Virus record (IMG/VR): IMGVR_UViG_3300040801_003693
Span: 32,001 to 96,000 of that record
Origin: a virus
Strand: one strand, 5' to 3'
DNA: 64,000 bases
The notes beneath the pieces were generated by a model. That model made no database searches, had not been told where the DNA came from, and saw only the letters and a list, made by a program, of their open reading frames with translations. Within the stretch, counting starts at the first letter, position 1. Every line of letters begins with the position of its first letter. The position numbers and the translations under genes are program-made. Positions 22,927 to 34,299 of the stretch are shown here, piece after piece.

Positions 22927-23284
22927 TTTAGAGGATTATAAAATATCCTATGAGGTGACAGTATTGCCCAACGTATTATATGCAGAATTAGTAAATGCAA
23001 AAACTCCTTTAGTGTTTGATAGTTTTTATATTCCAGAAGAGTTAAAAAATTTTGCGCTTGAATGTAGATTTATTCTTTACGACAAAGATGGAGGATGTGT
23101 AGAGTTTTCTAACAACATTACTTTGGAACAGCAAATAGTTTACACGTTAAATTTAGTTCCATTAAAGATGATACATAAATTATGTTCTTCAGTTAAAAAT
23201 CAATATTCAAAAGAATATCCTGTAATTGCGGGGTCTGATTCAATAGCAGATTCTTCTACGCTATCTTCTAATGATTCAACATAA
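22916..23284 (+). CDS. hypothetical protein; 3' end overlaps the giant gene antisense
   Basis: ATG 22916 overlaps the previous gene's end. Confidence 0.55.
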   Translation: MNINLEDYKISYEVTVLPNVLYAELVNAKTPLVFDSFYIPEELKNFALECRFILYDKDGGCVEFSNNITLEQQIVYTLNLVPLKMIHKLCSSVKNQYSKEYPVIAGSDSIADSSTLSSNDST

Positions 23285-32800: not shown

Positions 32801-34299
32801 TGCATCTTTTGATATACTTCTGCCTTCGCACTTAAACTACGTTCGTTGGTACTTAGATAAGCAGCATCATGCTTACCCATCTCCCCGGCTTGAACTCCAC
32901 TAAATAAACTCTTTTCATATTGCAGTAAGAACACCTGGTCAAGAATCATTGACATTTTAGCTTTGTTTGTTCTACCCGCACCACTATCTAAATATTGCAA
33001 AGAGTTACGTAAATGTTCCATTGTTTCTACTGAACTTCCCACGTTATTCATTCCCGTAGAAAGAAATTTACTTTCTCCTCCAAATGTTCTTTGCATCACT
33101 TTACGTGCTTGAAGATACATTAAACTCTCTGCATCTACTTCACTAGTTTCTCTCTCTCCGGCATCAAGCTGTCTTGCTAATTCATCCGGAGCAATCCCAC
33201 TCATCTTATACTCAAGAACGCGCATGGTTTCATAGTTACTACCCGCTTGATATACCGACTGTCCAATTGGATTCGTTAAGTTTTGTGTTCCTATTACTGC
33301 AAATCTTTCGTTCAGTAAAAACTTAGGGTGGGATTTTTTATCCGCTAGCATCAAGTTAATATCTACTTCTTCCCCAAACTGGTCTTTCAATCTTTGCAGC
33401 TTGTTGAAGAATCCTAAGTTAGGTCCTAAAATATCAAAAGTCTTTAAATCAAAAGACTCGTCTGTAGGCATTGCTAACCTAACATTAAACTTAAATTTAT
33501 CTGGAAGCTCTCCTCGTGCGATCGCCTCTCTTCTGTCTTTGACTCTTTCTAATATATTTGCTACGTAATAATCTTGTAGCTTTTTCGACTGCAACTGGAA
33601 TATGTCTATGAAGAATTCTTTATCAGCATCCGCAAGCATTGCAGCCGCAGGTAATATACCCGGTCTATTTACGTAGTCTACATTTGATAACAATTTCTTT
33701 GCTCTACCCAAACTATTACTTTGAGTAACGTCATCAATCATTGAAGCGGTATTGAAAGACTCCTCTTGGAAACGGCGGAAGTCTCTTCTCATGTCCGCAC
33801 TACTTTTAACTGCATCAAACTTTATTTCCCTATCTGCTACAAAGTCTGCCTGTGCTTTTATATCCTGATAGTAAGGAATTAAATTACTATTCTTTACTGA
33901 ATTACCTGTCATATAACGAACTAAGTCCGTTGCAATATCTGACTGAAATTTACTGTCTAATTCTTCTTTACCAAATAAGCTTACATCAAAATCTTTGAAT
34001 AATCTTTTATAGAATGAAGTACTATCTTGATTATTCTCTGCGATTGCCCTACTAAAATTACTGCTGATACGATACATATAAGCGGACTGCACGCTCTCCT
34101 GTGCCGCCCGCTCATCTCTAGCTTTACGTTCTGCTAACTGCTTATATTCACTAGCAACAAACCCTTTATAGGTATCTTCAATGGTATCTAAATCTTTATT
34201 TTCCTCCTCGGAGAAAAGAAGATGGAATCTAGATACCTCTACTAAATTATTGTTTTGATAGTTACCTTGGTCGTCACTAGCGAATATCTTTCCAAACAT
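29896..34299 (-). CDS. giant protein N-terminal part with two PLD-like HxK motifs
   Basis: HPKFLLNERFAVIGTQN and HVKGFLLSDNSGYLAGKQGSSN; ends in a TGA followed by 45 open in-frame codons leading into the 29760 ATG. Confidence 0.75.
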   Translation of the reverse strand: MFGKIFASDDQGNYQNNNLVEVSRFHLLFSEEENKDLDTIEDTYKGFVASEYKQLAERKARDERAAQESVQSAYMYRISSNFSRAIAENNQDSTSFYKRLFKDFDVSLFGKEELDSKFQSDIATDLVRYMTGNSVKNSNLIPYYQDIKAQADFVADREIKFDAVKSSADMRRDFRRFQEESFNTASMIDDVTQSNSLGRAKKLLSNVDYVNRPGILPAAAMLADADKEFFIDIFQLQSKKLQDYYVANILERVKDRREAIARGELPDKFKFNVRLAMPTDESFDLKTFDILGPNLGFFNKLQRLKDQFGEEVDINLMLADKKSHPKFLLNERFAVIGTQNLTNPIGQSVYQAGSNYETMRVLEYKMSGIAPDELARQLDAGERETSEVDAESLMYLQARKVMQRTFGGESKFLSTGMNNVGSSVETMEHLRNSLQYLDSGAGRTNKAKMSMILDQVFLLQYEKSLFSGVQAGEMGKHDAAYLSTNERSLSAKAEVYQKMQYQFLTAVVEGRASAIVDIRNYKEKVLDPIYGKLRTVGLLGESNGFDLSKLVKDASGSGSTEDKISRLGSVLEGHGLDKSMALQLLAMQSGNIKTASVPRQHVKGFLLSDNSGYLAGKQGSSNMGLYSLAMEDSLFERETVNYEMDMLFGRQKLRDLSNEQASTGGMGYGLNANQETEEMGKFARNFHIMESDTTPGRVGQLQYQDVTGGEWQGSVDRKRLVQLHDRLKSLEEMTKINMGVGFEYDEKGPIALSLTIDPYSIGNSQGGGSQLKYKFTTLSSGSGAGEGFVLEINKSKLISETEFVNMSNSDIATGFERNGNKVLIRRGQRETLSPIESTLSLIASVASESANLNLVRFPKNEFVTRYSTVNTESYDNLITGSVNYLNRIFDSTGDINSLLSIDKERVLLGLAQFEAKYKQDSGDVSQTIRNLTNVKPGDTSRLSELLEITNKIKAYASTDNVDIRKALLLGGANLSAEDSIIGRLNTLLSRDDDTFADVRFDFVSAQKDYLYNRDLNKTIKNLSTEKFESFLLYGQANTYSKMQARRKRPAYGVNDRRYDTVNVINTAGYEGVGALNKFALMNTPASFGATSDLGTGELLYMAVAEGGGSRETSNYFEGIKFGLNNMLPYHKHEKTGDVTSLKIIEDAHVGAILRVEEAESYFKTIAFLGDDFARQTTDDYREQLESLSGEDGIVMQFYFDQKKKASQIPQRIKNVIGSRPLRDLSQSYQDIVDNFSGVYTNRFSNVGQTTTVKTVDQLRQLYVKDIQGGLADGYRNNFNFTKYSLGALYADRIAPVLSAELSLELEAIRKQVATEFGIREEDTYDGVGAELLRATLLSIDTHASAVRGFLGSSQRYGPSVMLMQLEGAYSDYYYANPEFGGSSGMRQGFVDRAVKGYQGSKLRATVSTDDLQQALGVDSWSAIKNILASSGEIIQFDSSDNKTWVYKWNEAAGDYIKDRVVDSRNQF

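Follow-up and report, generated by a model that had tools for sequence, protein, structure and literature searches.

In the present study, we analysed a window of 64,000 nucleotides of viral DNA (positions 32,001 to 96,000 of IMG/VR virus record IMGVR_UViG_3300040801_003693), which lies within a viral contig of 135,938 bp (estimated completeness 78%) with a GC content of about 29-40%. Our subject is a giant gene on its minus strand, the frame of which runs from 34299 to 23200 and comprises 3,699 codons and a terminal TGA when read through one internal TGA at codon 1468 (29896-29898). A sequence-only reading of this stretch had described a 3,699-codon gene for a phospholipase D (PLD) enzyme fused to a two-barrel RNA polymerase (RNAP). 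The length of the frame and all the motifs quoted for it were borne out, namely HPK at residue 324 and HVK at residue 601 near the N-terminus, the beta-like segments VMLMQLEGAYSD at residue 1360 and GGRNESQAGGLFKGV at residue 1534, the beta'-like RSPP at residue 2554 and GGDFDGD at residue 2611, and a Gly/Ala-rich hydrophobic C-terminus with two hydrophobic 19-mers (residues 3445-3469 and 3580-3599). The frame is not, however, an open one, and translation table 11 yields two open reading frames (ORFs) instead, 29896..34299 (1,467 aa) and 23200..29760 (2,186 aa from the first ATG). On balance, we consider it probable that the gene encodes a gp080-family protein combining a PLD enzyme with a two-barrel RNAP, which is packed into the particle and injected, and which carries a membrane anchor at its C-terminus.

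The features recognised along the giant gene are as follows, where all conservation counts, here and below, refer to an alignment of 46 family sequences.

23200..34299, minus strand: whole giant-protein frame, gp080 / PHROG 31006 family, with PHROG 31006 matches in both halves
32050..33687, minus strand: two-lobed PLD-fold domain, residues ~205-750
33280..33330, minus strand: HKD motif 1, HPKFLLNERFAVIGTQN, residues 324-340 (H, K and N each in 43/46)
32434..32499, minus strand: HKD motif 2, HVK...GSSN, residues 601-622 (H and K in 44/46, N in 45/46, Asp not conserved)
29440..30252, minus strand: beta-like module, residues ~1350-1620, with EGAYSD (D1371), R1536...K1546 (GGLFKGV) and K1592...H1598 (ANPSNFKSY..HG); the most conserved part
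29896..29898, minus strand: in-frame TGA, codon 1468, between the halves of the beta-like core (from translation)
29761..29895, minus strand: 45 codons from the TGA to the next ATG/GTG/TTG, encoding family-conserved protein (ATSNAAS, REVLRxVRIL) with no start codon inside
26449..26640, minus strand: beta'-like segment, from RSPPLG (2554-2559) to GGDFDGD (2611-2617), recognised by conservation
25450..26202, minus strand: conserved block after DFDGD (GRGLFGGMED, LGKTYN, RDSIKPK), from the alignment
23893..23967, minus strand: C-terminal hydrophobic segment 1, residues 3445-3469 (hydrophobic 19-mer)
23503..23562, minus strand: C-terminal hydrophobic segment 2, residues 3580-3599 (hydrophobic 19-mer)

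The gp080 family and the internal TGA

Judged by sequence comparison, the window gene is an orthologue of the gp080-family giant protein, in an uncultured low-GC relative of the Microcystis phage Ma-LMM01. PHROG 31006, a profile of length 3,562 without an assigned function, matches once in each half, with E values of 1.7e-135 (profile 174-1408) and 5e-131 (profile 2437-3540), and membership of the gp080 / PHROG 31006 family holds over the full length, the identity to Ma-LMM01 gp080 being 28-31% from end to end. When the phage collection was searched with tblastn, only Microcystis-type phages were matched (9/9 records, 30.5-31.0% identity), and the match in Ma-LMM01 was gp080, an uninterrupted hypothetical protein of 3,562 aa lying beside tail, head and sheath genes; MaMV-DH01 has the same gene arrangement as Ma-LMM01 around the giant gene. 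The Ma-LMM01 and MaMV orthologues thus share with the window protein the family, the domain order and the place beside the head genes, whereas the window copy differs from them in having the TGA, in being 137 residues longer, and in belonging to a genome of about 33% GC in which a second, small candidate RNAP is also encoded. A cyanobacterial host is probable, since the closest cultured relatives infect Microcystis and the phylum of the bin that holds homologue L010 has split, rpoC1-sized genes. Among the genomes around L010 (G001-G015), PF00623 falls in frames of 570-657 aa in 10 of the 15 matches listed, which is a split of the rpoC1 type.

Apart from the window's own ORF, a word-based search of 5.8 billion proteins returned seven homologues without interruption (3,514-3,673 aa), and scans of viral, metagenome and genome contigs gave loci L003-L010, where each whole-gene locus is a stop-free frame of 3,496-3,707 codons. 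With the core profile against 1.84 billion representatives, 47 proteins were found at E<=0.001, 40 of them measuring 3,212-5,372 aa. A scan of viral contigs with the single protein gave no match. Because the homologues found in these searches are few, long and uninterrupted, the family is taken to be rare, giant and single-chain. Many pairwise identities within it are only 17-45%, and the positions that are invariant across the 46 sequences point to conservation of the motifs beyond chance. Outside the domains treated below, the segment QIPQRIKNVIG (residues 1208-1218, ~30646-30678), about 150 residues ahead of the beta-like core, keeps its R, K and N in 45-46 of the 46 members. A distant second clade of giants was also seen on metagenome contigs (L007 and L008/L009; 3,496-3,679 codons, 17-18% identity, no Cys), whose only common ground with the main family is the RN.T...SQGGDFDGDS segment and which lacks HKD motifs; the PLD head is therefore not universal among such giants.

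The internal TGA falls in the best-conserved stretch of the protein, between EGAYSD and GGLFKGV, at a column that is itself variable in the homologues (S 9, A 7, D 7, T 6, R 4, and others). No other member in the homologue and locus sets is split at this position, and when relatives of the N-terminal half were sought in the range of 806-2,568 aa, the window's own ORF was the only match. Among the 53 ORFs of at least 120 aa, TAA is the stop in 43, TAG in 5 and TGA in 5, the giant's own end included, and as a codon that ends 5/53 ORFs TGA is a working stop in this genome. Two explanations by recoding were tried and rejected. A genome in which TGA means Trp or Gly does not agree with a single TGA in 3,699 codons, with the five ORFs ending in it, or with a tRNA search of the whole 136-kb contig that found none, and selenocysteine or a structured recoding signal does not agree with the 131 nt around and after the stop, which fold no better than shuffles (z 0.44). 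In public reads, the sequence was located in three runs of one sample, with no RNA data set listed, as four short contig pieces at a depth of ~4; one 158-nt piece reaches the TGA, 4 nt from its end and with one unlocated mismatch, and no piece bridges the site.

We are inclined to attribute the TGA to a base-calling or assembly error, or else to a defective allele. The rather unlikely alternative is that it is functional, either through low-rate readthrough, giving much of a 1,467-aa PLD fragment and little full-length protein, or through an enzyme of two chains joined across the beta-like barrel. In favour of a function, the 11.1 kb contain no second lesion, conservation continues through the 45 codons that follow, the variable column means that any inserted residue could be tolerated, and split beta and beta' genes are known in multisubunit phage RNAPs (PMC7598289). 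What speaks against a function is that the split is shared by no other member, with the window's own ORF as the only match at 806-2,568 aa, that the 45 codons offer no ATG, GTG or TTG, that the 136-kb contig yielded no tRNA, that the RNA structure after the stop is ordinary, and that TGA works as a stop elsewhere in the genome and at the giant's own end. Taken singly, readthrough at codon 1468 seems unlikely, and a genuine two-chain enzyme improbable.

The PLD domain and the putative RNA polymerase

Residues 205-1404 of the window protein were modelled with AlphaFold2 from a 23-row alignment (pLDDT 81.9, pTM 0.74). The claim of a PLD enzyme at the HxK motifs agrees well with the predicted structure, which has a two-lobed alpha/beta PLD fold there, and with the two HKD motifs, which are kept in 43-45 of the 46 members. 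With this model, Foldseek returned 84 PDB matches at E<=0.001, and all of those shown were PLD-superfamily enzymes. Both marks of the PLD (HKD) group, the pair of motifs and the two-lobed fold, were thus found, and by predicted fold and motifs the domain is shown to be of the two-HKD phosphodiesterase type, with a catalytically competent look. The PLD consensus motif is HxK(x)4D(x)6G(S/T)xN; compared with it, the spacing from the acid to G(S/T)xN in motif 1 is five residues instead of six, and motif 2 lacks the Asp. Identity to PssA, to bacterial and human PLD, to the PLD3/PLD4 exonucleases, and to vaccinia F13, Tdp1 and the PPK1 C-domains is 9-13%, Pfam PLDc found no match in the giant protein, and, unlike in the superfamily enzymes, the PLD domain is here fused to a 3,000-residue protein. 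Lipid-cutting and nucleic-acid-cutting members scored alike in the fold search, and the fold alone cannot separate them. This domain is the part of gp080 that was already known, through automatic naming, since the Ma-LMM01 protein stands in BFVD/UniProt as 'PLD phosphodiesterase domain-containing protein'; what is particular to the window is the TGA inside the frame, together with the small candidate for a second polymerase.

As to the polymerase, eight residues are common to all two-barrel RNAPs (Ruprich-Robert and Thuriaux, PMC2919709), namely three Asp, an Arg and a Pro in the largest subunit (Rpb1 D481/483/485, R446 and P448) and an Asp and two Lys in the second (Rpb2 D837, K979 and K987). 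Candidate counterparts of these eight, alike in kind and order, stand among the conserved positions of the giant protein. Invariant in all 46 sequences are D2613, D2615, G2616 and D2617, which make up a DxDGD loop of the Mg-binding Rpb1 D481/483/485 type, as well as R2554, G2559, G1367, R1536, L1544, K1546 and K1592, while D1371 and H1598 are kept in 45/46 and P2557 in 43/46. The candidates for the Asp and the two Lys of the second barrel are D1371, K1546 and K1592, and also R1536. The pattern RxP...DFDGD recurs in the distant giants L007/L008. In the block that follows DFDGD, K2869, Y2871, N2872, R2941, D2942 and K2945 are kept in 44-45 of the 46 members.

The fold of the core was modelled on residues 1300-2480 of homologue P0008 (35% identical); in the window protein, the two candidate barrels span more than 1,200 residues. 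The model (pLDDT 68.1, pTM 0.53) is good over the beta-like part, and 48 of the 50 best PDB rows in Foldseek were second-largest-subunit chains of RNAPs, of 960-1,222 residues (E 0.014-0.27, probability <=0.98), the RNAP chains among these best 50 coming from vaccinia virus, Pol I, II and III, bacteria, plastids and African swine fever virus (ASFV). In BFVD, 10 of the top 50 rows were named RNA polymerase (e.g., the poxvirus 132-kDa subunit), at probabilities of 0.41-0.97, and an ESM Atlas feature search with the beta' region led to clusters carrying the RNA-dependent RNA polymerase (RdRP) family PF05183 at 0.85 and 0.83, which serves as a lead only. We consider it quite likely that the giant protein contains a highly diverged single-chain two-barrel RNA polymerase. 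The proposal of such an enzyme keeps its conserved motifs and its beta-like structural rows, but the DFDGD barrel is poorly folded and no profile match is significant. When the P0008 model was examined for paired barrels, the beta-like part weakly resembled RNAP subunits, but the DFDGD part had a pLDDT below 50.

Several observations weigh against a polymerase. The core model is one of the homologue P0008 and not of the window protein, it gave no Foldseek match at E<=0.001 (the best being 0.014), and, given the abundance of RNAP entries in the PDB, the 48 rows count in effect as one weak observation; the DFDGD loop itself lies within the stretch of pLDDT below 50 (model 1097-1115). Pfam found no family at E<=1 in either half, and PF00623 had no match over the genome at E<=10, compared with 14/14 controls; the domains of the cellular enzymes (PF00623 and PF00562; Rpb1 domain 2 and Rpb2 domain 6) were accordingly not found in the protein. 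A profile of the beta' region, searched against PDB sequences with hmmsearch, retrieved no RNAP. The hhalign probabilities were 21.8% to cyanobacterial beta' (motif only), 5.6% to gp96 and 2.1% to gp64 of phage P23-45, and 0.17% for the beta-like region against beta. R2554 and P2557 stand in an RxxP and not an RxP pattern, 59 residues ahead of the loop, and RSPPLG co-aligns with NRAPTLH of beta' and FRNP of gp96 in greedy hhalign only; of the two lysines, one alone stands in a GDK...NKG-like spacing. VIA-align searches with the core model, in wide and second-look modes, gave lists filled by helical hairpins (model 1105-1181 and 650-750), and a complex prediction for the two halves of the beta-like module with the beta' module gave no answer (score 0.00). 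The authors of the Ma-LMM01 transcriptome attribute every class of genes to promoters of the host sigma-70 type (PMC5780444), and phages of the Ma-LMM01 type are stated to lack an RNA polymerase (PMC9927357). The gene is, besides, broken under the standard code as the sequence stands. On the other hand, phage two-barrel RNAP families share little beyond the DxDxD region according to the P23-45 paper (PMC10770324), and the missing profile matches are therefore expected, though this is no support.

These points give some room to an unlikely rival, in which the protein is a giant ejected or structural one with PLD as its sole enzyme, DFDGD is a metal-binding or structural loop, and the likeness to RNAP beta is a weak chance match of a beta-rich domain. 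Such a protein would agree with the lack of any RNAP structure at E under 0.014, with a profile-level similarity that stops at the motif, with the poor modelling of the DFDGD region, and with the host-type promoters and missing RNAP of the two phage-group papers. It would leave unexplained why nine positions of the kind that defines two-barrel enzymes are invariant or nearly so, in the correct order, in 46 sequences otherwise 17-45% identical, and why the top structural rows in two independent libraries (PDB and BFVD) are almost all RNAP second-largest subunits; the independent language-model search also points away from it, to two-barrel enzymes of the RdRP type.

Proposed virion delivery, related systems and genome context

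The genes of the window that bear on delivery, and the second polymerase candidate, are listed here.

37536..39092, plus strand: portal gene (PHROG), 3.2 kb from the giant gene
46628-47935: major head protein gene (PHROG)
57595-59832: tail sheath gene (PHROG)
6966..9050, minus strand: 694-aa ORF, by sequence and ESM Atlas a candidate second (non-virion) two-barrel RNAP, with WRNPNP...GNNGDDDGD close to the C-terminus

There is no Cys in the 3,699 residues of the giant protein, in which ~43 would be predicted from the content of the window's other ORFs (1.16%, 119/10,294). Across the 46 members (3,212-5,372 aa, ~180,000 residues), only two Cys occur, so that 44 members have none and two have one each. 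The C-terminus is equally distinctive, with at least one hydrophobic 19-mer within the last 400 residues in 43/46 members and elsewhere in only 6. From the position beside portal and head genes, the absence of Cys and the C-terminal hydrophobic helices, we infer that the giant protein is delivered in the virion. The same three features fit, by analogy, a protein that is carried in the particle, leaves it as an unfolded thread and lodges in a membrane, as has been proposed for gp96 of P23-45 (PMC10770324).

By the account that we prefer, the protein would consist, from N- to C-terminus, of the two-HKD PLD, a two-barrel RNAP (its beta-like part first and its beta'-like part second), long helical regions and the pair of hydrophobic helices. 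Expressed alongside the structural genes and incorporated into the particle, it would pass unfolded through the tail, a passage which would explain the family-wide absence of Cys; its C-terminal helices would then anchor it at the envelope, and the polymerase would transcribe the first phage genes without the host enzyme. In the course of entry, the PLD domain would cleave either nucleic acid or the phospholipid of the envelope. The small 694-aa YonO/RdRP-like polymerase may subsequently take over in this genome.

A tape-measure fusion like gp96, in which the helical C-terminal half, with its hydrophobic helices, would act as the ruler of the tail and as the channel for entry and the PLD and RNAP would be passengers, appears improbable. 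It is suggested by gp96 itself, which joins a DFDGD-RNAP, a tape measure and membrane domains (PMC10770324), by the conserved hydrophobic C-terminus, by the tail of MaMV-DH01, given as 260 nm and in need of a long ruler, and by the 30 large ORFs scanned on the 136-kb contig, among which PHROG called no clear tape measure. Yet the gene lies beside the portal and head genes and not after sheath and tube, the tape-measure rows in BFVD have a probability of 0.05-0.28 and an rmsd above 32 A, hhalign to gp96 (residues 1-1200) reached only 5.6%, ORFs of 615 and 1,186 aa in the baseplate region are alternative candidates, and the MaMV-DH01 authors mention a separate tail-length-determining protein. 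Of the traits of the gp96 type, namely a position in the tail module behind the tube and chaperone genes and tape-measure and peptidase domains, none was found, with no such PHROG match in either half.

Compared with known systems, the giant protein may work, by analogy, as do the giant two-barrel RNAPs packaged in the virions of P23-45 and crAss-like phages, but judged by sequence it is not a member of the crAss-like, P23-45 or cellular RNAP families. With gp96 (PMC10770324), it has in common a giant size of virion type, DFDGD, a putative RxP-type motif upstream and membrane segments, and P23-45 also has a second small two-barrel RNAP in its genome (gp64 there, with the 694-aa ORF as the candidate here). 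No sequence relationship to gp96 is detectable by hhalign, however, and the RNAP is N-terminal in gp96 but central in the giant protein; gp96 has a metallopeptidase and no PLD, and it is a siphovirus tape measure, while the giant gene stands beside the head genes of a contractile-tailed phage. The crAss-like phi14:2 gp66 (bioRxiv 10.1101/2020.03.07.982082) is a two-barrel RNAP that is large, made as a single chain and packaged in the virion, as the giant protein would be; it too has a DFDxD loop, and both proteins have almost no sequence likeness to cellular enzymes; by its description, gp66 is set apart by its 2,180 aa, its DFDID and the lack of a PLD. It was absent from the 50 best PDB rows of the core model and from the VIA-align rows shown, in searches that did not use the gp66 sequence directly. 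YonO and QDE-1 (PF05183 RdRP) are single-chain two-barrel enzymes, but they stay below ~1,400 aa and lack both a PLD and a membrane tail, and Pfam gives the giant protein no match to them. In coliphage N4, gp50 is a virion RNAP of ~3,500 aa, packed in the capsid and injected for the early genes, with the polymerase in mid-protein and of the T7-like single-subunit type; by contrast, the giant protein has no T7-type Pfam match at E<=1 in either half.

In full-text searches and in term look-ups in PMC10770324, PMC2919709 and the crAss preprint, gp080 or its relatives are nowhere called a polymerase or a PLD fusion; for the questions of novelty and timing, Supplementary Data 3 and 4 of PMC10770324 (which survey phage two-barrel RNAPs) and Table S3 of PMC5780444 (on the expression class of gp080) may be relevant. 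Among viruses of toxic Microcystis blooms, phages of the Ma-LMM01 type serve as the main cultured model, and because Ma-LMM01 is in culture the claims of polymerase and delivery are directly testable. If the proteins of the gp080 family are indeed polymerases that are injected, a re-reading is needed of the early programme of these phages and of their puzzling lack of effect on host transcription. Giant virion two-barrel RNAPs would in that case reach from crAss-like and Thermus phages to contractile-tailed cyanophages, and PLD would be added to the enzymes occurring in fusion with such polymerases. The absence of Cys over ~180,000 residues offers a clean, testable signature of a protein travelling unfolded.

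The 694-aa ORF, which contains cysteines, was related by ESM Atlas to phage clusters carrying PF05183 RdRP at 0.95 and 0.94, in 27/30 hits. It had no Pfam match and no tblastn match in the phage collection, only two homologues were found for it in the 5.8 billion proteins, and hhalign gave no significant link between it and the giant protein. A pair of virion and non-virion polymerases, by analogy with P23-45, is plausible for this genome and need not hold for Ma-LMM01. The most far-reaching scenario, for which we see very little chance, would have a bloom-related cyanophage lineage inject a Cys-free machine of PLD, RNAP and membrane anchor, which here starts a two-polymerase cascade via a hairpin-punctuated 24-gene array holding the small YonO-like RNAP, while the UGA is a programmed readthrough site setting the ratio of free 1,467-aa PLD product to full-length polymerase.

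Among the other genes, a 1,230-aa ORF (53793-57485, plus strand) lies directly upstream of the sheath gene and has no PHROG match; Ma-LMM01 and MaMV-DH01 carry much shorter genes in its place. Outside the window but in the same genome, L011:12394-13767 encodes a protein of 458 aa with an M23-type peptidase end, which matches tape measures and endolysins in their peptidase parts, and L011:10478-12007 a 510-aa baseplate protein with an amidase-like end. Both are probably wall-cutting tail proteins.

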